64,000 bases of DNA from Cyanidioschyzon merolae (Eukaryota): assembly GCA_000091205.1 (NCBI GenBank), contig AP006498.2, one strand, 5' to 3'. Positions 3,950-60,600 of the stretch are shown piece after piece. A model generated the notes under the pieces. It searched no databases. It was not told the origin of the DNA and saw only the letters and a list, made by a program, of their open reading frames with translations. Made by a program: the position numbers and the translations under genes. Every line of letters begins with the position of its first letter. Position 1 is the first letter of the stretch.

Positions 3950-4545
3950 GCGCACGCGGCTGTTTCGTCTAGACTTTCACCTGAATTGTGTTCCATACCT
4001 GGGTTCGTTTCATCGTATGCTTTTTTTGCGGTTTAGAGCAGGTGTGTTCGAAGTGCGTTTACTTGAAGAAATATAAAACCCATGACATAGGTATGGACTT
4101 GCACGTCAGGGGTCCTGAAGGGCGATCATCGCGGGGGTTCGACCAGAAAACGAAACAATCCTCTCTTTGTCAACCATCGAGCGAAGCAGAGCAAGTGGCA
4201 AAGATGATGGTGATGATGATGATGATGAAGAGCGGAAATCCGTGAGACAAGGTGTCTACCCGACGGGACTGGAACGAGACTGTAGTGGCACGGAGGGAAC
4301 GAGTTCTAGCAATCCTTGCAAGGATGACTCCAAACAACGTCAATGCACGCATGAAGTTCGTGAAGTGATACTCCAACGCCGCTACCAATACGAGACGATG
4401 TCTTGTGTAGTGAAGACGAATTCCGCCGAGCTAACGCAATCCAACTTTGTGGGGCAGCTTCTCAGGCTCGAAGTGTGCCTCGATAAACTGAAAACGATAG
4501 CAGTTGACCGGTCATGAAAGGCTGCAGGCGTCTGCGCATGGGTAG
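3950..4545 (+). mobile_element. ~0.6 kb non-autonomous Fanzor/TnpB-derived element (family-2 copy: left end plus 3'-terminal coding remnant and right end)
   Basis: Its left part aligns with the left ends of the 11.8, 47.0 and 60.0 kb copies (cctgaattgtgttccatacctggg ... gttcgaagtgcg). Its right part encodes an acidic stretch plus a decayed RuvC-III region (gagttctagcaatccttg ... caggcgtctgc) homologous to nt 12100-12385. Confidence 0.45.
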
Positions 4546-6858: not shown

Positions 6859-8661
6859 TGCTACCGCTCCACAAAGCAGGTGCCTGCTCCAGCACAGCGT
6901 CAAGCTTTGCGCTGCCTTCGAGCGCTCTAGCAGAAAGCTCTCATGTATCAAGCGCTGGCAATCCGTGCGCAGGAGATTCGGGTTCGCAGCACCGTAATCT
7001 GAAACGAATCACTAGTTGGCAATTCGATAACAATTGATTTCCCTCTCTAAGCCCAGCGTTGATCACGGGGAAAAGTTTTCCGTATTTTCGAAGGTTTATC
7101 TTCTGGACGGAGGGAACCGCGAACCGGACGAGTCTGACGGGCTCGTGCTTCATGCTCCGCCCACTGGCGGGTGCAGAGGCGCGACCCGCGCAGCTCGTCC
7201 GCGACGCAGTCTCTTCTGAGACTAGGAGAGGTTACGCTGTATCTGGGCGTCGCCCTGGTCGCGATTGACTCGTAGACTATCGCTTTGCACTGTCGATGGA
7301 AAAACATCTGTCTGTCCAGCTTGCAATCTCCCAGAATGATGATGAATCCCGACCCTGTGTCGTGTGCACCACGCCTCGAGCCGACGCCATCTGTGGTACG
7401 GCAAAGCCCTTCTGCCCCCGTGCTAAGGCTGCATCCGCGCTACCGGCGCTACGGCGGGTGCTCAGGGCCGGCACTTGGCGCACGAAAGAACGCACAAAAC
7501 GACCAGTATATACGAGGAGAGGGAATGGAACTTGCAGGTACGGGGCGGCAGCCTGATGAATGCTTTCCAGAATACCAATGTTTATCTAGGAATCTGGGAT
7601 TGATAGTCAGTGTAAACGTTTTGTCAAACCGAAAAAAAACTGTCCCAGTAGAATGATCATTGCGTTTCACGATAGAAAATACTCCTTCGATGGGCCTGCA
7701 AAACGGGGTGTGCGGAGCAATGCATAGCAGCTCGACCCCGATAGCATCGGCAAAAGCTCGAACGCAACGGGAATAGAGAAATACCTCGTTGTCCAATAGA
7801 AGGACGTCGCCAGAAGTCAGGGGAAAGTCTTCAATCATTCGACAAAGTTGTTGGTGCTGTTGGATGAGGCATATCTACGAAGGAAACTGAGCCCGCCGAA
7901 TGAATCCACTGCAGCTACAACAGCTGTTGATGTCATCGTTCTCTTCGAGTTCGATCGTAAATACAACGGGCGCCCTGCTCCTCTAATACTCACTTACGCT
8001 CTGCCTATATCGTACGAAGCAAGTCTTATCGACTGAAAAAATGAACCGACGTTCCTGGGCTTTGTCTGGGGAGCGACGCTCCGGGAACACTGTCGTTACG
8101 ACTTTAGTGGAAGATGACCGTGCATGAAACCGCAATTATTTGTCCGCAACTGTATTCCAGTGTTTCCAGAATAACACGAACAGGTTGTTGAGAAACAGAG
8201 ACGTCTGTAGCGGCTAGTATCGTGGCTTTCGCTTTCCATAAAGTGATCAACGGTTCGTTCTCTACGATGGACCGCAAGCTGTCTTTACGATGATCGGTTT
8301 CTGGCGCGGAGCGCATCGTATTCTCTTTGTTTCAGTGCTCCTAAACCATCTGAGTACTGTGGTACGTCTAACCTGAAGGGGGAATGAAGCCCTCGATGCC
8401 TTGTTGCGTAAAGAATACGTATCCTACAAGCAATTCGTCTACCATCTATATACGGTACCTTGCATCGTTATTTCCATCGCCTGCTGGACACCGCGGCGAG
8501 GGCGAAACACACATGGGTTGCACCGCTCGTACGGTACGAATGGCAGCTTCTGGAGCCGCTCCAGCGTCCCGGCTGCATACTTGTTTCTGGTAACTCCGTA
8601 TTGCGCGGAACGACCCATTTACTCAAAGATATTTTTGGGTAACATCATGCTCATCCAGTAA

Positions 8662-11789: not shown

Positions 11790-12385
11790 CAGAACGAGTA
11801 CCGTGCTTTCGGCGGGATCGCTTATAGTCGTTCCCCTCAATTGTGGTCCATCTCCTGGGGCGTGTCGCTGTACGCTTTTTCGCGGCTCATAGCAGACGCG
11901 TTCGAAGTATACTGATTTTTAAAAAAATCTGAGGAAAAGTTATGGATAAGGTAGTCGAAGGATGCTGGGGGCCCGTCATCGACGAGTTCGATAAAAACGA
12001 AAAATCTTTTCCTCGTCGAGAATGGAGCGAAGAAGAGCAAGTGACGAAGAAGAAGATGACGATGAGAGATAGACGAGAAAAGGTTTTTGCCCAATGGGTC
12101 GATGACGAGACTGCAGTGACATAGAGCGCGCGAGTTCTAGCAATCCTTGTACTGGTCAGTTCCACCCGCGGCAAGACACGCATGGAGTTCGTGAACCGAG
12201 ACTTTGACGCCGTTACTCATATACGGATATGAGCGGTGCAGGAGAAGAGGCCCGAGAAGCTGACGAGAGCCAACTTCGTGGGGGAACCTCTCAAAGTTGA
12301 ATTGTATGAGGAGAAGTTGAAGCCAGTAGTAGCTGGCCGGTCAAAAAAGTCTGGCAGGCGTCTGCAGCTAGGTAGGTAACAAGTT
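11790..12385 (+). mobile_element. ~0.6 kb non-autonomous Fanzor/TnpB-derived element (family-2 copy)
   Basis: Left end is homologous to the long-copy left ends (catagcc ... ttcatttga block). It then jumps to the zinc-finger/RuvC-III coding region (EKSFPRREWSEEEQ ... KTRMEFVNRDFDAV ... ANFVGEPLKVELYEEKLKPVVAGRSKKSGRRL, with in-frame stops). It ends with the conserved caggcgtctgcag tail. Confidence 0.55.
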
Positions 12386-12798
12386 ACCTTACTATCGCGA
12401 AATGCTTTCGCTCCGCTGAGCCATGCAGTGCAGGCCTGTGCGATTCAATCACGGGCTTGGTGTACAATGTAGCTGAGCGATGCACGCTTGCAGGTATCGT
12501 GTCTTTTCGGTTTGCGGGCAAAGTCTTCTCGAGCGAGCGCGACTCGTTCGCGAAGAGCGCACAAAATGCACGCTCGTTTCCACAGCGGCCCGTCAGCAAA
12601 TGCAAGCACGAAAAAGAACAACGCTTACGCGAAGAGTGCCGCAAACTCATCTAGTTTCCGCAGCAGCCTGCCAACAAATCCCTGTACCTCCTTAGCGCAC
12701 AGAAGCCCGTAATTCGTGATTATTCGCACTGCAAGATGATTTGAATTGAGTCCGCATTCGCGACCGAGTTACGACTGCTGCCCGGTGACCAGTGCTCC

Positions 12799-28306: not shown

Positions 28307-28344
<38 letters not shown>
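28307..28344 (+). repeat. (CCAG)9.5 microsatellite
   Basis: ccagccagccagcc... read directly in an intergenic region. Confidence 0.9.
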
Positions 28345-28350
<6 letters not shown>

Positions 28351-29879
28351 ACTTTATTTCGATGACAAAACGTTTACATTGACCATGGATACCTGATTTC
28401 CGGGTGGGTGTTCGTAATCGAAAAGGCGTCCATCATGATGCACCCTATCTCCAAGCTCCGTTACGTATACTTCCTCTAGGATGTAATGGTCGTTTCGTAC
28501 GTTCAATCGTTCGTCAGGTGCCTGCCTTGCTGCACCCGCAATCGCAGCTATGCCGCTTGTGCAGATCCATCACGGAGGCAGAACGCCTTTGTCGCATCAC
28601 TGAGGGTGTCTTAACGAGGCGTGATTCATTCAACAAGGGGTCGGAGTACGTGATCATTCTGAGAGCCTGCATGCTGCGCAGACAGACCTTGTACCTGCGG
28701 CAGCGGGAAGCGACGTACTAGGAGTCCACTGCGACCAGGGCGATGCCCAGACACGCAGCATACCCGCTCCGAGCCCCAAAATAACCTGCGTTTCGGACGA
28801 GTTGCTCAGGTCTCGCTAAAGCACTCGCCAACGGGGGAGAGTACGACGAATTAGCCTACCAGACTTGTCCGGCGCGCAGGACCTTCCGCCAATAAGGTAA
28901 ACGTTCCACAGTATGAAAACCTTTTCCCTCTTTTACCGTTTATCGTAGTTGGGGAGAGAAACTGTCATCTCGTTGGCAATGACTCGTTTGTCTCTGCTCT
29001 TTGTTCCACGGCACTGATTTCGAACGGAATTGACAACAGCCGAAAGACACGGAGGGTCGCTGGAAAAAACATTGAAAGAAAACAAACCAGTCACAAACCA
29101 TTTATCACAGAACAACTATCTTGAAGCCGCACACACCACGCCCGCCTAAGAGGTCTAGTTTTTCCGGAGAAGCTCTAAAAATGGGTTAACGCGGGGTGTT
29201 CGGGCGATAGGAAGGAAGCCCACGACAAGGTCCTTGACCGCAATGCACGGAGGCGCGGAGGCAGTAGCACCAGAAAATATGGACGAGAGTTCTGAGCAGT
29301 CATCCGCCCCTCCCGAAACAACGCTGTAGGTTCGGGCACAAATACTGGATCAATCCTTGAATTCGGGCTCAGTTTAACCCTCTACCTTGGGTACCTACCT
29401 CAACTTTGGAAACAATCTCGGCGGATGCTTTGGAAGACGGCTGGCAGTATGTTCGCGATCGATGCTGGAACAAACGACTTGCCCGCCTATGTGTTTGGGG
29501 AGCGGATGCGAAGCCGCTGAAAAGGTGGTTTGCAGACTGTTCCCAGTGATTGAGGGGAGCTTCACGCGTCCGGCAAGATAAAGGTCGCATTCGAATCGAC
29601 CTTGACTAATGTACCTCTGATTCTATGCTAGCGCTGCGCCAAGCACTCAATGAACGACTGGAATGCGGGAGGCGCTGGTGGCATGTGCGTTCACACACCC
29701 CGTCGAGGGTACATCTAAATCGACAACGTATCTCTGGAGCACCGCAGCGTTACTCCTATTCCCTTGTGCGCTACGACTCTATAGGTTTCGCATCATGGAA
29801 TATTTGCGGGATAGCCTCGGAATTGAGCTACGAAATATCGAATTACCAGTAGAGTAAAGAGGAACTTATACAAGTGGAG

Positions 29880-32890: not shown

Positions 32891-33480
32891 ATGCATGATC
32901 ACGAAGGAGAGAGGCGGCTCCCAGGATATATCCTAACAGTCAAGTTTCTCCAGCGTGTCGTGCAGCGAAGACAAGCCTGCATCCCCAGACTGTACGAGCA
33001 CAAACTGACGACGAGACCCGATTCTACGTCGGGTGAACCACACCTCGAGCCGATGCCCTCTGGGGTATAGAAAAGCAGTTCTAGCTCGATGAACTATCTG
33101 CTCCAGCATTTAAGGTGCAAAGGCGGATACGGAACGGCAGGTACGAGGCACACCCGATAGGACTTATGAAACGACCAGAATATCCGAGAAGAAGTATAGG
33201 TAATGGAACTTGGAAGTAGGCTGTTTGATGGATAATTCACCGCACATTGGAAAACACAAAAAAGTAAGAAAAGAAAAATGCGCATAGTCGGAGAACGCTG
33301 GCCAAAGGAAACGTTTTGTTAATGAAAAAAATGCCGCCGTTGAAGGAAAACGTGATCTTGATATCTAGCATGTAGCTCTAATGTAAAAGTTGTATTTTCG
33401 TTAACTTCATAGCCAAGTATAGTTTTCAGTTCATTTGAGTTTCAAACCTCAAACATGTGTATTCAATTGTTTTGTCGCAG

Positions 33481-33488
33481 TATATAAC
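33481..33488 (+). promoter_or_regulatory. candidate TATA box ~55 bp upstream of the Fanzor-like ATG (33542)
   Basis: gcagtatataacag. Conserved in copy C (tgtgtataacag) but mutated in copy B (cagtatcgaacag). Confidence 0.25.
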
Positions 33489-33541
33489 AGAAGCGTTCCA
33501 GGAGCTTTCTTTTTCAAAAAAAAAACTAAAAAAGGAAAGTT

Positions 33542-35755
33542 ATGAAAAAGCAAGTCGACGATCCTGGAGGCCGAGGGTCGCCGGCTGCCAGAAAAAAAAC
33601 AAAAAACAGTGCCAAGTCCAGAAGAAAAGGAAAAGAAGAAGGACCAAAGGGGGAAGGGGGGAGACTCTACGTCGAAGGATGCAAGAAAGACGAATGTACG
33701 ACGAGATGGTGGTGAAAACCTTTCTTCATGGCCATATCAAGGATCCCTACAGGGAAAAGTTGCAAGACGCTATCAGAAACCGTGTCGACTCGTACTCCAA
33801 GAGTATTGTCAAGGCGTCGTCAGGACTGATGCATTTGGTACGGGAGATGTATCGCGACGTGACGCACATGGAAACGGTGGAGATTCCGGACGAGTTTTTC
33901 GATAAGAAGTTTATTCGTCAGCTGATGCTTGGTACAGAGGAAGCGCGGAGGGAAAATGTATGAGTGCATGCCCTCCACGAAAAACATCCCTTTTACAGCT
34001 TCAACGGTACTCGATACAAGGGTGACCGGGATATTTACAGCTATGGGGCGATGAAGTACCTCACGAATCTGAAGAATCCTTTGACAGTGAACCTCGAACG
34101 TTTCATGATACGCGCCGTGTTTGCACTCGATCCCGGGCATCTCTCCCAAAGGGATATGGGCGATTACCAATGGCATCACGAACAATCGCCGGCGTGTAGA
34201 TGGGATCGAATTTGTCGACAAGAAGGCGTCAAAAGAGATCACGAATGAAGCTTCTGTTATCCGTGCGGCTATACAAGTGCACCGTGCAGTTTTGGGGCTG
34301 GCGAATCCGACAGACAAGATATCAGAGTTGAAAAAAGATAAGGAAAGATACGATCGTCTCGTCCTACGGTATTTTGTGTTTTTGGACCGAGAGCTCGATC
34401 GCAAAGCGGAGATGAAGCTGAGCGAGGAAAAAAATGAAGAATGGGAGAGACGGAAGGCGTTCCTAATGGGCGAGCGCTTCAACGTGGTTCCGTTGGGCAA
34501 CATCAAGTCACATTTTGTGACTATCGACTCCGGCGTCCTTTACGGCATCATGACTGAGACCAGTCCCGAGTTCGATGTAAGGAGCACAGAGATCACCGCC
34601 GAAACCCGCGAGACGTACTGGAAGAATATCTTCAATTTCAAAGGGCTCAAAGTCAGCAAGAAAAAGGAATTCACTGGGTTGATCGAAAGCGATGGAGTAG
34701 CCATGTGTGTACACTATCTGCGGTTGTTGAAAGATCGTCCAGTTCTGCCCTCGGCTTCGCGCTCGGCGAAACATGAAGAAAACAAACAAGCGGATCCTGC
34801 GACGCAGAAAGTGCAGGAAAACGACTTTGTCGTTGGCGCGGACCCCGGAAACACAAATATCATATCCATCGCTGTATCCAAGCTTGCGGACGATGGTTCT
34901 GACGGTAACTTGCGTCAGAAACACATGCGTCTTCTGAGGTTCTCGAGCGCAAGAGACTAAAGAGAATCCGGAATAATGAATGTGCGGAAGAAAATTGAGA
35001 CATGGAATGCAGGAATAAAGGACCACTTGGAAGCTATGAGCGAGGTGACGAGCCGAGGAGCGGGCTTTCAAGCTTTTCTGAAATTCATGAAAGTTCGCGT
35101 TGCTCATTGGGAGGCGCTGTGGGAGGAGTATACAAAGCCTCGGTGGGCTCGTCTGCGTATGAATCTATACTGTGGGAAGCAGCGGGCGTTCGCGAACTTT
35201 TTCAATCAGTTGAGCGCCCTGAAGGTGGATGTGAGTCAGAGGCTCGTCGTAGCATACGGAGCAGGGCGCTGGAAGACCCAAAAAGGGTGTACACCAGCTC
35301 CAACGACGAGAGCGCACAAGGAGTGTGCACGGCGTTTCGTAACGATACCTGTAGATGAGTTTCGAACATCGTATACACACCACGAGCTGGATTGTACACT
35401 TCAGAGGGTCGAGATGGAAAAGTGCCAGAGGAGCCCTGAAGATATAATAAAGTATGGACCGCTGACGGAGGAGCAAATGGAAAGGAGGGCAAAAGTTCGG
35501 CGACTACTTGCATTAGTAAGTACAACCAATCATGGCAAGAAACGTATGGAATTCGTGAATCGTGACTTTGATGCCGCCATCAATATCAGGAAATGTGCGG
35601 TACTGGAGACGAGAGCTCCAGAGTGGACAAGAGAGAACTTTAATGGACAACCTCTCAAAGTCGAACTATATAAGAAAAAATTGAAACTAGTAGTAGGTGG
35701 ACGTTCCAAACAAACTAGGAGGCGTCTGCACGTCAGTTGGAGACGATTTGTCTAA
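33542..35755 (+). pseudogene. Fanzor/TnpB-like nuclease gene of copy A, disrupted
   Basis: Homopolymer frameshift after MKKQVDDPGG. In-frame TGA at ~33961. A +1 frame change inside 34121-34248 shared with copies B and C. In-frame TAA at 34958 shared with copy C. The 3' part (34976-35755) is intact. Confidence 0.7.
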
Positions 35756-35870
35756 GGCGCGTTTGCCGCCACTACGGTACACTGCTGGCAGCAACGTTTT
35801 TCATTTGAAAAACGTTTGGCGGCGAGCTGCTCATTTCCCACGGGCAGACACCTAAAGCGGGTCATCTGGT

Positions 35871-45568: not shown

Positions 45569-46904
45569 TGCACGAGGACATTGTGCCGTGGGGTGATACC
45601 TGGGGGAAACCGCGGGGCGACCCAAAAAATGGGCAGGTATAGACTCGCAATTCATACTGAGTGCACAGGGTCCAGAACCGCGCGAACAAGTGTGTCTCGG
45701 GGAAGCACGCTCGGTAGATGTACAGCGCCAAGCCATTCCACAGTTTTTGCCGAATAATCAGGAAGTTTCTCTGAATGTTTGCGTAGGTCGGCAGCCTTCA
45801 TGCGAGGTTGTGACTATCGCCGCTATGGAACGTGGACGTAAAGGCGGGATGCAGCACAACACAATGCTTATTCTCTGTATCGACACCGGTTTCGGACCAA
45901 AATGGAATGCTAGCAGCTCGCTCGGCTCCTTTTCTTTGATTTTCTCGAACTCGATTTCAGGTGTACAACCCCGGTAATCCAAGTACAGCAATAGAGACCT
46001 ATGTTTTCGAATTTAGAACTAGGATTCTCGGTCTTGTTTTCAGAGTGGCTCTTTCGATGCCTTGGGGCTGGAATTCGTCTCGCCATTAGCATCAATATCG
46101 TGCGCGACGCTTCCGACAGAGTGTTCGTCGCGGAACCGATACCATCATGCGATTCATATGTACGAGCTTGCACTCTTGTCAGTTCCGTAGGTGCGGCACG
46201 CTAAAATCATGCATTCGTCTGGTTCTCGATCGTTCTATTTCATGGCAACTCGTGGGCGCAGCAACCTCCGCGCCTGGATTGACGAGGAATCAAGTCGGCA
46301 TCGTCCTGTGACGACTGCTTCATCAGCTCATCCCAAGGTCCCATTGAAATTGTCACGTCAAAGAAGCGCTTCTTGCGGAGAGTGTACCACTGCTTTGCTC
46401 GAAGGTTGCGTAGTGGTATCGGATTCCATCGGCTCGGGCTCCAGCCATGGTTCTCCTGCCAGTACCTGTTTCATCACGGAAAACATCACGTTCCACGATC
46501 CCTTATCGATTGGAACTGTGCGCTTGCAGCAGACAGCGTACTCGCCCACAGGATCGTGCAGAAGAAGCACGATATCCCAGGGTACGGCAATGTGCGGAGA
46601 AAAGCAGGGCATTGACGGGAGTTTTCTGTGCGCATCGAGCGCATGCACAGAGCGATGGAGCGCGTCCTCTCGTGCTACAGGGCGGTGCCCGAGATGCAGT
46701 GGACAACATGGCAACTCCTGACAACAGCCAAGCGGTACCGCCGCGAAGGACGCACCGAGTCTGTGTACGAAGAAGATGAAAACGTCAAGAAAAATGTTGA
46801 TCAAAAATGTCCTCTGAGCACACAGTGCGTCAATATTGCCAAGATAATGTTTCGGGACCATAGGCTGTATAGATATTCAGCCACACACGGGCGCCCCTCA
46901 GTCT

Positions 46905-47430
46905 TTTTCGACCGGCCTCCTGCTATCGGTTTCATTTTCTCCCTGCACATTTCGAGTCTGAGAGGTTGTCCAACTAAGCTAGATCACTCGGCTCAGCTCC
47001 TGGGGTCTCGTCTTCTGCACCACACATCCTTTGATATTGATGGTGGCGTTGAAGTCTCGGTACGCGAGCCCCATGCGTTTCCTGCCTCTGGTTGAACTCA
47101 TCAACGCAGGGATTCCCCGAACGCGTGCACTCTTTGTCACTACAGTCTCGTCATCGCCTCGTCGGGCAAACACTTGCTCTCGCTTCTCTCATCTCTTCTT
47201 CTTCGTTCGATGGTCGACGAGCAGAGGGTTTTTCTGATTTTTGTCGAGCCCGGCGAAACCGGGCGATCCAGCATCCCCAGCTGCCATTTCCATACCTTTT
47301 CCTTGGGTTTTTTATTTCTTTGAATCAACGCACTTGGAGCACATCTGCTATAAACCGCGAGAAAGCATTTGATGAGACACTCCCGGGCGTGGAACACACC
47401 TGAGGGAAAAACTGAACGCATCGTACGGGG
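46905..47430 (-). mobile_element. ~0.55 kb non-autonomous Fanzor/TnpB-derived element (family-2 copy)
   Basis: Minus-strand ORF 46979-47173 encodes KRMGLAYRDFNATINIKGCVVQKTRPQE (RuvC-III). Nucleotides 46905-47050 align with the 3' ends of copies B and C (ctgagaggttgtccaac ... cacatcct-tgatattgatgg). The left-end block at 47330-47430 aligns with the 60.5 kb and 11.8 kb copies. Confidence 0.55.
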
Positions 47431-49046: not shown

Positions 49047-49243
49047 TGCTGGCACCGAACACCGTTCGCAGTCGGACGATGCCGACCGTGTACAGTAGTG
49101 GCGGCAACCGCGCCCTAGACGAAACGTCTCTAACTGACGTGCAGACGCCGCCCTGCCGTTTTCGACCGGCCACCTACTACTGCTTCCACCTTCTTCTCAT
49201 ATAGTTCGACTTTGAGAGGTTGTCCAACAAAGTTTTCTCTTGT

Positions 49244-51300
49244 CTAGTCTGGAGGTCTCGTCTCCAGCACCGCACATCTCCTGATATTGATGGCGGCATT
49301 AAAGTCTCGGTTCACAAATTCCATACGTTTCTTTCCATCATTGTTCGTACTTACTAATGCGAGTAGTCCACGAACTTTCGCCATCCTTTCCATTTGCTCT
49401 TCCGTCAGCGGTCCATACTTTATTATATCTTCAGGGCTCCTCTGGCACTTGTCCATCTCCACTCTCTGAAGTGTACACCCCAGTTCATGGTGTGCATAGG
49501 ACGATCGGAACTCGTCTACAGGTATCGTAACGAAACGTCTTGCGCACTCCTTGTATACCCTCGTCGTTGGAGCTGGAGTAGTGCCTTTCTTGGGCGCCCA
49601 ACGCCCTGCCCCATACGCTACTACGAGCCTCTGACTTTCATCCTCCTTCAGGGCGCTCAACTGATTGAAAAAGTTCGCGAACGCCCGCTGCTTCCCGCAA
49701 TACAAATTCATTCGCAAACGAGCCCACCGGGGCTTGCTGTACTCTTCCCACAGCGCATCCCAATGGGCGATGCGAACTTCCATGAATGTCCGAAAAGCTC
49801 CAAAGTCCGCTCCTCGGCTAGTCACCTCGCTCAAAGCTTCTAGGTGCTCCTTCATTCCTGAATTCCAAGTCTCGATTTTCTTCCTCGCATTCCTCATTCC
49901 CGATTCTCGATAGTATCTCGCTCTGGAGAACCTCAAAGGACGCATGTCTTTCTGACGCAAGTTACCATCAATGCCATCTTCCGCAAGCTTGGATACAGCG
50001 ATGGATATGATATTTGTGTTTCCGGGGTCCGCACGAACGACAAAGTCGTTATCCTGCACTTCCTGTGTGGCAGGATCCGCCTTCTTCCCATCTTCATGCT
50101 TCGTCGAGGACGGAACTGGACGATCTGTCTTCAAGCGCCTTTAGTGTACACACATGGGTATTCCATCGGTTTCGTCTGAAAGTGAGCAACTTTTGCTTGC
50201 TCACTTTCAGACGTTTGTAATCGAAGATATTCTTCCATTACGTCTGGCGGGTTTCGCCGGAGAACTCTTCCCTGCGAAGATCGAACGCCGGACTGATCTC
50301 AGTCATGATGCCGTAAAGGACGCCGGAGTCGATAGTCACAAAATGTGACTTGATGTTGCCCAACGGAACCACGTTGAAGCGCTTGCCCATTAGGAACGCC
50401 TTCCGTCTCTCCCATTCCTCATTTTTTCCTCACTCAGCTTCATCTCCGCTTTGCGTTCGAGCTCTCGGTCCAAAAACACAAAATACCGTAGGACGAGACG
50501 ATCGTATCTTCCCTTATTTTTTTCAAATCTGATATCTTGTCTGTCGGATTCGCCAGCCCCAAAACTGCACGGTGCACTTGTATAGCCGCACGGATTACAG
50601 AAGCTTCATTCGTGATCTCTTTTGACGCCTTCTTGTCGACGAATTCGATCCCATCTACACGCCGGCGATTGTTCGTGATGCCATTGATAATCGCCCATAT
50701 CCCTTTGGGAGAGATGCCCGGGATAGAGCGCAAATACGGCTCTTATTATGAAACCTTCGAGGTTCACTGTCAAAGGATTCTTCAGATTCGTGAGGTACTT
50801 CATCGCCCCGTAGCTGTAAATATCCCGGTCACCCTTGTATCGAGTACCGCTGAAGCTGTAAAAGGGATGTTTTTCGTGGAGGGCATCCACTAGCACATTT
50901 TCCCTCCGCGCTTCCGCTGTGCCAAGCATCAGGTGTCGAATAAAGGTCTTGCCGAAAAACTCGTCCGGAATCTCCACCGTTTGCATGTGCGTCACGTCGC
51001 GATACATCTCCCGTACCAAATGCATCAGTCCTGACGACGCCTTGACAATACTCTTGGAGTACGAGTCGACGCGGTTTCTGATAGCGTCTCGCAACTTTTC
51101 CCTGTAGGGATCCTTGATATGGCCAAGAAGAAAGGTTTTCACAACCATCTCGTCGTACATTCGTCTTTCTTGCCGCCTTCGACGTAGAGCCTCCACCTTT
51201 CAGTCCTTCTTCTCTTCCTTTTCTTCTGGACTCGGCACAGTTTTTTGTTTTTTTTCTGGCAGCCGGCGACACTGGGCCTCCGGGATCGTCGACTTTTTTT
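49244..51300 (-). pseudogene. Fanzor/TnpB-like nuclease gene of copy B, disrupted
   Basis: The start codon is lost (ctataaaaaaagtcgacg versus ttATGaaaaagcaagtcgacg in copy A). There are several frameshifts in the 5' half. The 3' half (296-aa ORF 49244-50134) has RuvC-I to RuvC-III intact and reads through the position where A and C carry TAA. Confidence 0.7.
50173..50213. repeat. perfect 17-bp inverted repeat with a 7-nt spacer, private to copy B
   Basis: cgtctgaaagtgagcaa-cttttgc-ttgctcactttcagacg. Copies A and C carry a non-palindromic sequence at the same place. Confidence 0.8.
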
Positions 51301-52032
51301 ATAGCTTTCCTTTTTTTTTGGAAAAGAACACTCTTTGGACGCGTCTGTTCGATACTGCGAAAAAAAACTCGACTAGACTTGTTTGAGGGTTGAAACAAAA
51401 ACGAACTGAAAGACTATACTTGCCTATGAAGTTCACGAAAATACAACTTTTACACGAGAGCTAGACGCTAAGGATCACGATTACGTTTCCCTTCAACGGT
51501 GGCATACGCGTCGTGTCTCATGACTGCCCGATCCCCCAGATGCGCTCATCGAGCGCGATGCATGCGCTGCGCGAGACGCCTCACCGATCCATGAAGGACA
51601 CGTGTCCGACACCCCGTCTTGGCACATGCGTGTTCGCATCGCACTGCAGCCAAAATAACGTATCGTAGATCGGAAACGCACGTAGAATGAACTCTTGCTA
51701 TAGGTTCTGTCGCTGGCGCCGACGCTACTGCCCATCGCAGTACCGCCCTGACATACAAGGGGATGCAGGGGCCTGGCACGATACCCCTCGACGCTTCTAT
51801 CAAAAGCGTAGCGTTCTCTGCGGCTTACCGTTGTGTGGTTAAGGTATGCATCACTCTTCTCAATAGGATTTTCGTTAGTTTTATTGATCATAAACAAACA
51901 AGGTACGGTAGGATTCCTGAACACGGATACAGGTTTATTTCCTCTGCTTGTTATGTATGCTGCACGGTCGCTGGAACAGTGTCCGATTGTATGGGTGCTG
52001 CGTATCGAGGCTTGTCGCGCGCTCCAAGCACG

Positions 52033-54414: not shown

Positions 54415-54449
54415 GACACTCTGGAAACCTCGTTCGCCACGGTAGCACC

Positions 54450-56950
54450 GCCACAGCCGTTCTAAGTCGGACGACGCCGACGGTATCCCGTAGTGGCGGC
54501 AAACGCGCCTTAGACAAATCGTCTCCAACTGACGTGCAGACGCGTCCCCGTCTTTTTCGACCGGCCACCCACTACTGCTTCTAACTTTTTCTTATATAGT
54601 TCGACTTTGAGAGGTTGTCCAACAAAGTTCTCTCTTGTCCACTCTGGAGGTCTCGTCTCCAGCACTGCACATCTCCTGATATTGATGGCGGCATCAAAGT
54701 CACGATTCACGAATTCCATACGTTTCTTGCCATCACTGGGTGTACTTACTAATGCAAGTAGTCCACGAACTTTTGCCCTCCTTTCCATTTGCTCCTCCGT
54801 AAGCGGTCCATACTTTATTATATCTTCAGGGCTCCTCTGGCACTTTTCCATCTCCACTCTCTGAAGTGTACAACCCAGCTCGTGGTGTGTATACGATGTT
54901 CGAAACTCATCTACAGGTATCGTAACGAAACGCCGTGCACACTCCTTGTGCGCTCTCGTCGTTGGAGCTGGTGTACACCCTTTTTGGGTCTTCCAGCGCC
55001 CTGCTCCGTATGCTACGACGAGCCTCTGACTTTCATCCTCCTTCAGGGCGTTCAACTGATTGAAAAAGTTCGCGAACGCCCGCTGTTTCCCACAGTATAG
55101 ATTCATACGCAGACGAGCCCACCGAGGCTTTGTATACTCCTCCCACAGCGCCTCCCAATGAGCAACGCGAACTTTCATGAATTTCAGAAAAGCTTGAAAG
55201 CCCGCTCCTCGGCTCGTCACCTCGCTCATAGCTTCCAAGTGGTCCTTTATTCCTGCATTCCATGTCTCAATTTTCTTCCGCACATTCATTATTCCGGATT
55301 CTCTTTAGTCTCTTGCGCTCGAGAACCTCAGAAGACGCATGTGTTTCTGACGCAAGTTACCGTCAGTACCATCGTCCGCAAGCTTGGATACAGCGATGGA
55401 TATGATATTTGTGTTTCCGGGGTCCGCGCGAACGACAAAGTCGTTTTCCTGCATTTTCTGCGTCGCAGGATCCGCTTGTTTGTTTCCTTCATGTTTCGCC
55501 GAGCGCGAAGCCGAGGGCGGAACTGGACGATCTTTCAACAACCGCAGATAGTGTACACACATGGCTACTCCATCGCTTTCGATCAACCCAGTGAATTCGT
55601 TTTTCTTGCTGACTTTGAGCCCTTTGAAATTGAAGATATTCTTCCAGTACGTCTCGCGGGTTTCGGCGGTGATCTCTGTGCTCCTTACATCGAACTCGGG
55701 ACTGGTCTCAGTCATGATGCCGTAAAGGACGCCGGAGTCGATAGTCACAAAATGTGACTTGATGTTGCCCAACGGAACCACGTTGAAGCGCTCGCCCATT
55801 AGGAACGCCTTCCGTCTCTCCCATTCTTCATTTTTTTCCTCACTCAGCTTCATCTCCGCTTTGCGATCGAGCTCTCGGTCCAAAAACACAAAATACCGTA
55901 GGACGAGACGATCGTATCTTTCCTTATCTTTTTTCAACTCTGATATCTTTTCTGTCGGATTCGCCAGCCCCGAAACTGCACGGTGCTCTTGCATAGCCGC
56001 ACGGATTACAGAAGCTGCATTCGTGATCTCTTTTGACGCCTTCTTGTCGACAAATTCGATCCCATCTACACGCCGGCGATTGTTCGTGATGCCGTTGGTA
56101 ATCGCCCATATCCCTTTGGGAGAGATGCCCGGGATAGAGTGCAAATGCGGCGCGTATCATGAAACGTTCGAGGTTCGTTGTCAAACGATTCTCCAGATTC
56201 GTGAGTCACTTCATCGCCCCATAGTCGTAAATATCCCGGTCATCCCTGTACTGGGTACCCTCGAAGCGGAATTCCGCGAAGTTTTCGTGGAGGGCATGCA
56301 CCCGCTCATTTTCCATCCGCGCTTCCTCTGTACCAAGCATCAGCTGACGAATAAACTTCTTATCGAAAAACTCGTCCGGAATCTCCACCGTTTGCATGTG
56401 CGTCACGTCGCGATACATCTCCCGTACCAAATGCATCAGTCCTGACGACGCCTTGACAATACTCTTGGAGTACGAGTCGACGCGGTTTCTGATAGCGTCT
56501 CGCAACTTTTCCCTGTAGGGATCCTTGATATGGCCATGAAGAAAGGTTTTCACCACCATCTCGTCGTACATTCGTCTTTCTTGCATCCTTCGACGTAGAG
56601 TCTCCCCCCCTTCCCCTTTGGTCCTTCTTCTTTTCCTTTTCTTCTGGACTTGGCACTGTTTTTTGTTTTTTCTGGCAGCCGGCGACACTGGGCCTCCAGG
56701 ATCGTGGACTTGCTTTTTCATCACTTTCCTTTTTTTGTTTGTTTTTGAAAAACAACGCTCTTTGATCCCTTCTGTTATACACAGCAAAAAATCAATCGAG
56801 CATTTTTGCTTGAGGTTTGAAACACAAATGAACTGAAAACTGTACTTTGCTACGACCTCAACGCAAACACAACTTTTACAGCTGAACAAGACGCTTCTGA
56901 TCGCGATTGCGTCTCCCTTCAACGGCGACGGGCGCTTCGTGTCTAATGCC
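54450..56950 (-). mobile_element. Fanzor/TnpB-like transposon, copy C (~2.5 kb)
   Basis: Collinear with copy A end to end. It shares the left-end block (cattagacacgaagcg ... ccgttgaagggagacg) with copy B and the right end (ggcgcgtttgccgccactacgg ... gtcggcgtcgtccgacttagaacgg) with A and B. Confidence 0.8.
54510..56721 (-). pseudogene. Fanzor/TnpB-like nuclease gene of copy C, disrupted
   Basis: Intact N-terminus MKKQVHDPGG ... KKRKRRRTK ... MQERRMYDEMVV. Private TGA at ~56206. The same +1 frame change and TAA as copy A. Intact 259-aa RuvC-II/ZnF/RuvC-III segment (54510-55289). Confidence 0.7.
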
Positions 56951-57809
56951 TGCCAGACAAGGATGTGCGCGTATCGGGCGCACTCTATAGAACAAAGAAC
57001 AGATACTGACCATTAAATCGCCACGAGATAACGATTTCTTTCCCCTCTGCGATAAACGTTGAGACGGGGAAAACTGTCGGTACTTTCGAAAGTTTACCTT
57101 CTAGACGCAAGGTCCCGCGGATTGCACGAGTCTCCCAGGCTCGTGCTTCACGCTCCGCCACTGGCAGGTGCTTTCGTGACATCTGAGCAACTCGTCCGTA
57201 ACGCACTCCACTCTGGGACTTGGAACGGGTAGCCGGCGTCTGGGCGTTGCCCATGATGCAGTGGGCTCCTGGTATATCGCGTTGCGCTGCCGCAGGCACT
57301 AGCTCAGTCTGCGCAGCTTGCAGACTCCTAGAACGACTATGAGCCACGACTCCGTTTCAGGTGAAGCGTTCCTCGGTCCGACGCCCTCGGAGGTATGGCA
57401 AAGCCGTTCAGTCTCCGTGATGCATCGGCATCAGCGATATAACCGCAATTGCGGGTGCTCAAAGCAGGTAATCGGCGCTCGATAGAGCATAAGAATCGAC
57501 CATTACATCCGAAATGATTTATGGGTCATCTAACTTGAGGGTAAGTGCATCATGATGGATGCTTTCCCGAAACCCAACATCCATCCATCCATCCATTCTG
57601 CAATCTGGGATCCATGGTCCACGAAAACGTTTTGTCACTGTAAAAAAATCAGCGCTGCCGCCGTTGCAGAGCGCCTCCAAGTTTCGCCAAAAACTCGTTG
57701 CCAAACGAGCGCTGCTATTGTTCTAGTTTACCGCTGTTGTCGTTGTTGTTGCCGTTGCTGGTAAGATTTCGTTAGGGCGCTGGTGCCTCAAGTTGGCGCC
57801 AACCAGGGC

Positions 57810-60024: not shown

Positions 60025-60600
60025 GGCCTTTTTTTGACCGAACCCTCTGATATCCGTTTGGGGTTTTCCCTGCAGACTTCGAGCTTGGGAAGCCACCCAG
60101 CGAATTTAGAGGGTGTCAGGTCCTCAGTCCTCGTCTTTAGCACCACAGATCGTGTGATATTGACTGCACCGTGAAAGTCTGGGGTTCACGAACTCTATGA
60201 GTCTATTGCATCTAAATGAACTCACGTTTGCAGGGATTCCCCTATCTTTTGCACTCTATGACACTAGAGTCTCGTCATTGCCACGTTTGGCAAACATCTG
60301 TTCTCGTCGCTCGTCGGTCTCCCGTTTCCCACTTCTTCTTCTGCTTCGTCAATAGCGCTATATCCCTCTGTTCTCGACGAGACGAGGATTTTTATCGTTT
60401 CTTTTTCAAGCACCCGGCAATGGTAGTCATCCAAGATGTCTGACTTGCATGTCTATACCTTTCCCTTTGATTTTTTATTTCTTCAAATGAATGCACTTTG
60501 AATACATCGGCTATGAGCCGTGGAAAAGCATATGGTGACATGCATCTGGCGTGGAACGCAATTGAGTTGAAATACGATAATCACCCGTGCGTGCATGCAG
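60025..60600 (-). mobile_element. ~0.57 kb non-autonomous Fanzor/TnpB-derived element (family-2 copy)
   Basis: Reverse complement of 60100-60200 encodes EFVNPDFHGAVNITRSVVLKTRTEDLTP (RuvC-III region). Nucleotides 60230-60590 are collinear with 47090-47430 of the 47 kb copy, including the left-end block. Confidence 0.55.

Follow-up and report, generated by a model that had tools for sequence, protein, structure and literature searches.

A candidate ωRNA scaffold at the right end of the Fanzor1 element CMe-1A in Cyanidioschyzon merolae

A repeat family in Cyanidioschyzon merolae raises the question of whether the conserved tail at the 3′ end of its Fanzor-type open reading frame (ORF) is the scaffold of a guide RNA (omega RNA, ωRNA), a transposon end acting only as DNA, or neither. 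The family was analyzed in a 64,000-nt stretch (GenBank assembly GCA_000091205.1, contig AP006498.2; the whole stretch is hereafter the window) holding three long and four short copies, together with 80 related loci fetched from metagenomes, ~60 of them with the tail (L numbers). The tail belongs to the transposed unit, overlaps 12 codons of the ORF, ends at ~35816-35824 in copy A, and has a foldable consensus. Given that its position, length, and ORF overlap parallel those of proven Fanzor1 (Fz1) ωRNAs, the best reading appears to be that the tail is at once the right end of the element CMe-1A and an ωRNA scaffold, the guide coming from flanking DNA. The probability of this reading is put at roughly 0.6. 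A preliminary description of this DNA had proposed much the same: its Fanzor-type ORF, its right-end region, and its expectation of a foldable tail hold, but its limits were misread, and the scaffold role is one that we infer.

Extent and coding overlap of the tail

The features of copy A on which the argument turns are as follows.

35718..35824, + strand: tail of copy A (107 nt), candidate ωRNA scaffold and right end, delimited by the ~60-copy alignment, a covariance model, and a conservation drop at ~35820
35718..35755, + strand: part of the tail in the Fanzor frame (ORF 34976-35755), with the stop codon TAA at 35753-35755
35817..35824, + strand: terminal box TGGCGGCG, from base frequencies in the last alignment columns; GTT and this box make up the right arm of a ~13-bp imperfect inverted repeat

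The three long repeat copies announced in the preliminary description are real: copy A runs from 33331 (+ strand), copy B from ~49052 (− strand), and copy C from ~54446 (− strand), with 94-96% identity between A and C and 87% between A and B. A 60-nt block at 35718-35777 (+ strand) recurs with one mismatch at 54488-54547 (− strand), where chance would predict no recurrence, and the version in copy B is ~88% identical. The block described as conserved in all long copies is thus present in each of them, but it is not non-coding throughout. The ORF at 34976-35755 extends in frame into the block for 36 nt (…RRRLHVSWRRFV*), and only the sequence past 35755 is non-coding. Most family copies have TAA or TAG at the site matching the copy A stop codon, and distant homologues stop ~15-20 residues earlier than the copy A ORF. 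Judged from these alignments, the in-frame part at 35718-35755 is a lineage-specific C-terminal extension.

Per-position conservation across 52 independent copies was 0.81-0.93 in the ORF, 0.82-0.87 at 35720-35779, and 0.68-0.73 at 35780-35819, and only 0.30-0.39 from 35820 onward. The tail at 35718-35824 overlaps the 3′ end of the ORF and ends where homology collapses, which is the placement looked for in an ωRNA. In ~60 family copies the tail lay on the Fanzor strand every time and had an identical end point every time. It is ~100 nt long, overlaps the last 12 ORF codons, and has the consensus GGAGGCGTCTGCACGTCAGTTGGAGACGTTTTGTCTAGGGCGGGTTTCTCGCCACTACTGTACACCGCTGGCGTCGTTCGACTTTCGAACGGCGTT, followed by a degenerate YGKYGKYG box. 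The covariance-model match in copy A spans 35718-35816 (E 3.8e-15). The right end of copy A could accordingly lie anywhere in 35816-35824; the last 8 nt are the degenerate box, so that 35816 is possible.

When the right end is reverse-complemented (CGACAACAAACGCC), it agrees with the left end over ~13 nt with one indel, the left-end consensus being CGATGACAAAACGTTTAC… (also given as CGAYRACAAA[A]CG) and the element termini being written CGAYRACAAAACG. A right end at GGCGTT was considered and then shifted 8 nt on, in view of the left/right repeat and the non-random base use, and the placement is still uncertain. Every left end is preceded by a T-rich tract (T 0.65-0.88 at −7 to −2), which may reflect a preferred target site, represent a candidate transposon-adjacent motif, or belong to the element itself.

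These limits change the meaning of what had been taken for flanking DNA. Similarity had been said to stop abruptly after 35777, whereas family homology continues to ~35816-35824; the right end had been placed 40-47 nt too early, and the guides proposed on that basis consist of scaffold and terminal repeat. Since homology reaches this far, the supposedly copy-specific extensions of copies B (gtacacggtcggcatcgtccgactgcgaacgg) and C are element sequence and not guides; they are the type-1 form of the family terminal hairpin. An experiment designed on the earlier coordinates would have taken part of the scaffold as the guide. The motif caggcgtctgc, said to be kept in the short derivatives, is exact in two of the four (4525-4535 and 12355-12365), but a sequence of 11 nt can recur this often by chance: 4 matches were counted at up to one mismatch, against 2.1 expected. 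It is meaningful only because it stands at the end of alignments of ~200-570 nt, and it marks the point past which tail subfamilies can no longer be aligned.

With the right ends so placed, the candidate guides would be the following.

35825..35844, + strand: candidate guide of copy A, AGCTGCTCATTTCCCACGGG, in a flank that is unrelated among copies
49051 to 49032, − strand: candidate guide of copy B, placed from its right end
54445 to 54426, − strand: candidate guide of copy C, placed from its right end

The flanks past the right ends are unrelated among copies, which agrees with a guide taken from the flank but would hold for any insertion. The 25 nt past the right ends of copies A, B, and C had no second site in the window or in 87 loci, orthologous alleles aside, and the suggestion that right-end flanks match other genomic sites found no support there.

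The encoded protein and comparison with known systems

33331..35755, + strand: Fanzor1 pseudogene core of copy A, with TGA at 33961-33963, a frameshift at ~34121-34248, and TAA at 34958-34960

Fragments of the ORF, searched singly, had no match in Pfam or PDB, and 65 homologues were found with a frameshift-corrected consensus protein. When a profile of 20 family members was compared with 177,635 PDB sequences, the only matches were 9cf0 (PpFz1, Parasitella, E 1.5e-13) and 8gkh (SpuFz1, Spizellomyces, E 8e-12). The translated copies A, B, and C all contain split RuvC motifs (ADPGNTN, VDEFRTSYTHHE, and NRDFDAAINIR), and the DPG, DEFRTS, and RDxNAA motifs line up with 9cf0 and 8gkh. By profile and motif the ORF family is thus assigned to Fanzor1, and the earlier description of the ORF as Fanzor-type is borne out by matches to PpFz1 and SpuFz1 only. 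A domain of unknown function, PF26935 (DUF8286), is recorded on many of the homologues among P0001-P0060 in precomputed annotation and is absent from the local Pfam scan.

The window repeat is CMe-1A, as matched to the published description rather than to the Repbase consensus. CMe-1A is a C. merolae Fanzor1 family of ~150 copies with a ~3-kb consensus and ~80% identity of copies to it (Bao & Jurka 2013, PMC3627910). Its 5′ 635 bp are a separate repeat, TE-N2_CMe; no terminal inverted repeats were reported and its class was given as unknown in that study, which predates ωRNAs (PMC3627910). The repeat described here comes from the same organism and has a full copy of ~3 kb (copy C, 3.2 kb), a single Fanzor1 ORF, ~80% identity among copies, and a 5′ module of ~650-730 nt that also stands alone (at 28.3 kb and 7 kb here). 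Beyond the published description are the ~13-bp imperfect terminal inverted repeat, the T-rich 5′ tract, the alternative 5′ modules, and the structured tail of ~100 nt.

The closest functional parallels are Fanzor1 systems with characterized ωRNAs. SpuFz1 (SPu-1; Saito et al. 2023, PMC10432273) is a homologue in a single-ORF element of ~2-3 kb that has many ORF-less relatives of ~550 nt, and there too the guide is expected from the flank; the Spizellomyces punctatus genome holds 134 such ORF-less “ghost” loci of ~550 nt (PMC10432273). Its scaffold of 75 nt lies wholly past the stop codon, with two stem-loops and 30-nt inverted repeats (PMC10432273), whereas the CMe-1A tail, ~100 nt long and with 12 codons inside the ORF, is predicted to form three hairpins, has a far shorter repeat, and cannot be aligned with it. 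Small RNA-seq, pull-down, and cleavage have established the ωRNA of SpuFz1; that of CMe-1A is putative. In the experimentally validated GtFz1 of Guillardia theta, the ωRNA overlaps the last 17 codons (PMC10432273), compared with 12 in CMe-1A, and several stem-loops lie between SL1 and the guide, in which the CMe-1A tail resembles it. No likeness in sequence to the GtFz1 ωRNA was noticed, although no comparison aimed at it was made. Solved Fz1 ωRNAs have two to four stem-loops, a range that includes the three of the CMe-1A tail (PMC11423790). The likeness extends to the ωRNA/reRNA of TnpB (IS200/IS605), where the guide RNA is also situated at the 3′ end of the nuclease gene and runs through the right end, with a guide from the flank; that system differs in being bacterial and in having a Y1 transposase and another scaffold.

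A different comparison concerns the mode of transposition. The Helitron2-borne Fanzor1 elements CRe-1/2/3 of Chlamydomonas reinhardtii (PMC3627910) likewise insert after T-rich tetranucleotides and have intact 3′ ends, variable or truncated 5′ ends, a 3′ hairpin, and short terminal complementarity, but the repeat of CMe-1A is terminal on both sides and not asymmetric. Neither a RepHel gene nor canonical Helitron termini came to light, although no search for them was made, and the resemblance to Helitron2-borne elements is a lead only. A Tc1/mariner-type element with terminal inverted repeats was considered and rejected: the repeat is only ~13 bp and imperfect, a TA stands before the left end of copy C but not of the others, and the 3.2-kb unit contains no transposase ORF. 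A DDE_3 (Tc1/mariner-type) transposase gene does occur at 463-1329 of L087, directly upstream of the Fanzor gene (P0054) of this distant relative (34% protein identity), but not in the CMe-1A family.

Predicted structure of the tail and its possible roles

The minimum-free-energy fold of the tail consensus comprises three helices, P1, P2, and P3.

35719..35749, + strand: P1, predicted helix of 35719-35727 with 35741-35749 in the consensus fold
35753..35774, + strand: P2, GC-rich hairpin in the consensus fold, consensus TAGGGCGGG-TTT-CTCGCC.CTA, with the stop codon in its base
35770..35780, + strand: linker CACTAC(T/G)GTAC between P2 and P3, from columns at least 90% conserved
35793..35816, + strand: P3, terminal hairpin of type 2, AACGTTTTTC-ATTT-GAAAAACGTT, predicted by folding, all 11 positions being paired in the covariance-model alignment

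The consensus + strand folded at −42 kcal/mol (z −2.8) and surpassed 197 of 200 shuffles, whereas its complement gave −28 kcal/mol (z −1.35), a difference of ~14 kcal/mol in favor of the + strand; the copy A tail gave z −2.7. In P1, GAGGCGTCT is paired with AGACGTTTT. The top two pairs of P2 are mismatched in copy A, and elsewhere in the family, both in single copies and in subfamilies, P2 has compensatory variants (AGCGTG/CACGCT, GCGCC/GGCGC, and GCGAAAA/TTTTCGC). The linker is unpaired save for its first five bases, which are part of the 3′ arm of P2, and a linker-like TTACTGTAT follows a different hairpin in L037 (42% protein identity). P3 extends into the short terminal inverted repeat and exists in two forms: type 1 in copies B and C (CGTCGTYCGA…TCGAACGGYG), and type 2, which is shared by copy A with L023, L082, and L019. 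The arms of the two types differ at five stem positions, all differences preserving pairing and one being a G-C to U-A double change.

In the window, a covariance model derived from type-1 tails matched no tails but those of the three long copies (E 1e-15 to 1e-20); in loci and window combined it found 65 tails.

49052..49152, − strand: tail of copy B, covariance-model match at 49058-49152 (E 1.2e-20)
54446..54547, − strand: tail of copy C with right end at 54446, covariance-model match at 54453-54547 (E 1.1e-17)

When 62 distinct tails were aligned with structure taken into account, 82.1% of cells were paired as against 79.4% after shuffling (0 of 500 shuffles), and 17 pairs had double changes as against 10.8 expected (5 of 500 shuffles). 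Most of these pairs belong to P3 and the upper part of P2, and few to P1. A hairpin also stands right after GGCGTCTGCAC in L028, L063, L053, and L075 and in the 12.4-kb and 46.9-kb derivatives, with unrelated stem sequences; further hairpins in the same order are clear in L028 and in the 12.4-kb derivative, the tail of which folded at −39.5 kcal/mol (z −1.7). The tails of distant relatives (31-42% protein identity; L037, L079-81, and L085-86) have another terminus (…GAGTATA) and could not be aligned, and are therefore unusable for covariation. The comparison across copies that the preliminary description had called for thus yields a foldable consensus and compensation in P2 and P3 between subfamilies, but none within type 1 and no structure from RNAalifold; statistical support for the predicted fold is modest.

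Several observations weigh against a scaffold role. Conservation of the tail is not above that of the ORF and so says no more than that the tail moves as part of the element. None of the three window ORFs is intact, with one frameshift common to copies A, B, and C, a TAA nonsense codon common to A and C, an extra TGA in A, and further frameshifts in B, so that RNA from these copies could act only with protein from the intact copies reported elsewhere in the C. merolae genome (PMC3627910). The tails of copies B and C fold unremarkably (z ~−1.4), and P1 is poorly supported, with double changes in 2 of 9 pairs and a competing AGAC/GTCT hairpin. RNAalifold applied to a sequence-based MAFFT alignment returned no consensus structure. 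Pairing in 33 type-1 tails was 82.9% versus 82.7% after shuffling, without covariation, and G·U and A·C mismatches were balanced (43 versus 40), hence no sign of RNA-level selection on individual copies. The alignment that gave positive covariation was itself fitted to the model, and the signal derives from few subfamily splits. The model misses the derivative tails in the window, and no family of Rfam 15, which may hold no Fanzor ωRNA family, reached its gathering score anywhere in the window. Given that neutral decay of the copies predicts null results both within subtypes and in the G·U/A·C comparison, those tests cannot settle function.

The balance of G·U and A·C mismatches would also agree with the tail being only a DNA-level transposon end, with the terminal repeat and subterminal hairpins as cis signals for a transposase supplied in trans (for example a Helitron2-like rolling-circle enzyme requiring a 3′ hairpin), 36 nt of C-terminal coding sequence, and no guide RNA. 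The short inverted repeat joining left and right ends, the overlap of that repeat with P3, the best-supported helix, the T-rich tract at left ends, and the variable 5′ and intact 3′ ends all suit this account, and the same pattern is found in CRe-1/2/3 (PMC3627910). It is the main rival of the ωRNA reading but is nonetheless judged unlikely. The readable 3′ end of one stand-alone TE-N2-like copy matched neither P1-P2 nor the linker (~60-80 nt), so that, if this copy transposed with those ends, P1-P2 would not be needed for transposition, although the 3′ ends of stand-alone copies are too heterogeneous to define. In Fanzor-linked subfamilies, by contrast, P1-P2 are kept with changed sequence and the same hairpin order. 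The strand difference in folding energy also argues against a purely DNA-level end, and the homologous position is the ωRNA in every experimentally tested Fanzor1 (PMC10432273, PMC11423790). The two roles are not exclusive, as the SpuFz1 ωRNA spans the 3′ inverted repeat.

That the tail is functionless, a part of a neutrally decaying repeat with hairpins incidental to GC-rich sequence, would agree with its ORF-level conservation, with the lack of within-family covariation and the negative RNAalifold result, and with z scores that are modest overall and not significant for copies B and C. This is considered improbable, since the sharp end and the three-hairpin layout are kept across subfamilies with unrelated stems, the differences between type-1 and type-2 P3 arms preserve pairing, the consensus fold exceeds nearly all shuffles, and a mobile element must have functional terminal sequences. 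The situation of the tail at and after the stop codon, with the stop inside the P2 stem, could further point to an mRNA 3′ untranslated region element serving stability, 3′-end formation, or translational control in place of a guide RNA. Such a role is very improbable: the structured region reaches exactly to the transposon end, homologous systems use the matching region as ωRNA (PMC10432273), and no polyadenylation-type signal was seen, although no search for one was made.

Under the favored ωRNA reading, an RNA covering the ~100 nt from GGAGGCGTCTGC to the right end would be made from the Fanzor strand, most likely at the 3′ end of the Fanzor transcript itself, and then processed. The resulting RNA would bind the Fanzor1 protein as the ωRNA scaffold, and the 15-20 nt of flanking DNA past the right end would serve as the guide. 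The ribonucleoprotein may then cut element-free copies of the site beside the left-flank motif, possibly the T-rich tract, and such cutting would help the element to be retained or copied again. In this scheme every activity of the RNA is inferred, from its transcription and processing to its binding and targeting. A bolder version, which is rather doubtful as a whole, holds that the tail is a working three-stem-loop ωRNA with a T-rich motif, that the protein is provided in trans by intact copies, and that mosaic and tail-only copies are footprints of nuclease-stimulated recombination. Copies with dead ORFs and short derivatives, with their own co-evolved tail subtypes, would then still be guided to their own insertion sites.

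C. merolae grows in hot, acidic conditions, has a complete 16.5-Mb genome, and is tractable by homologous recombination. If the tail is a real ωRNA, the scaffold, right end, and probable target motif of a natural Fanzor1 system are delimited in this alga, the use of Fanzor to its transposon could be tested directly in the native host, and a heat-adapted compact nuclease would be added to the editing toolbox. Since both the element family and the ωRNA principle are already published, the conceptual gain is small, and the tail as a putative ωRNA scaffold is a modest, unproven addition within a family published in 2013.

Copies, ends, and genomic context

The remaining parts of the long copies are listed here.

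49052..51976, − strand: copy B, Fanzor1 pseudogene with a different upstream module common to L074-type loci
54446..57640, − strand: copy C, full-length CMe-1A-type element (~3.2 kb) with TE-N2-like 5′ module, Fanzor1 pseudogene, and tail; homology to 30 loci up to ~57650
57595..57640, − strand: left end of copy C, CAGTGACAAAACGTTTTCGTGGACCATGGATCCC…, with the T-rich tract gattttttta before it

Copy C continues ~710 nt upstream of the common core to its left end at 57640, and copies A and B have upstream modules other than the TE-N2-like one. The 5′ sides of copies are in general heterogeneous or truncated, and the 3′ ends are intact. A left end at ATGCCGCCGTTGAAGG (33331), with its internal inverted-repeat-like match, was rejected on finding that most copies are homologous 55-730 nt further upstream. 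Left ends (CGATGACAAAACG…) following a T-rich tract of 6-8 nt were noted at 57641-57650, 28350-28359, and 7630-7640 and in 14 loci.

Over the ORF, identity between copies A and C is 96%, and both have the same TAA nonsense codon; A combines this with the type-2 hairpin and another upstream module, and C with the type-1 hairpin, as in its neighbor B, and the TE-N2-like module. This mosaic of shared and unshared parts suggests recombination or gene conversion between elements.

Shorter relatives in the window are of two kinds.

28360..29045, + strand: TE-N2_CMe-like stand-alone copy without the Fanzor gene, P1, or P2; 3′ limit tentative
7026..7629, − strand: second TE-N2_CMe-like stand-alone copy
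3970..4535, + strand: internally deleted derivative, similarity to long copies ending at caggcgtctgc
11825..12466, + strand: internally deleted “ghost”-like derivative (core 11825-12366) with a three-hairpin tail of a diverged subfamily; end tentative
46892..47409, − strand: internally deleted derivative of the L053/L075 tail subfamily
60030..60580, − strand: internally deleted derivative

The four internally deleted derivatives are ~0.55 kb long and 65-75% identical to one another. A (CAGC)n microsatellite (28310-28345) abuts the left end of the first stand-alone TE-N2-like copy, and a (GGAT)n run (57575-57600) lies just inside the left end of copy C.

Complete tails with no preceding Fanzor ORF were observed in L074 (796-887), L006 (923-1022), L035 (926-1009), L060 (1355-1445), and L045 (421-516). 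These lie ~1.1-1.2 kb upstream of a Fanzor start and are followed by a conserved module of ~790 nt that is partly present in copy B (51505-51976). The loci share outer flanks and may therefore represent a single old arrangement kept in related genomes. The copy A core is immediately preceded, at 33290-33330, by a right-end-like terminus, GGAAACGTTTTGTTAATG, followed by AAAAAA. Junctions of the GGAAACGTTTTGTTAATG type, in which the Fanzor core abuts the end of another short element, also occur in L010, L016, L020, and L059.

Another right terminus, …GGTGTNCCAMAAT…GAGTATA, was seen 150-270 nt past the stop codon in L079, L080, L081, L085, L086, and L037 (30-42% protein identity), and L079 and L080 diverge exactly past GAGTATA. 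In these lineages the candidate ωRNA region would be ~130-230 nt long and wholly past the stop codon.

Two neighboring proteins, MetAP2 and a TACC-like protein, are identical to BAM81860 and BAM81858 of C. merolae 10D. The right end of copy B (49052) lies 5 nt past the MetAP2 stop codon, that of copy A lies 47 nt before the ATG of the TACC-like gene, and the copy C tail overlaps a mechanical 5′ extension of an M13 peptidase ORF. No element-free allele was found, copy A being present in 3 of 3 related strains and the contigs of other strains breaking at repeats. The AT skew is strongly positive (0.14-0.23) at 30-40 kb, unlike the rest of the window.

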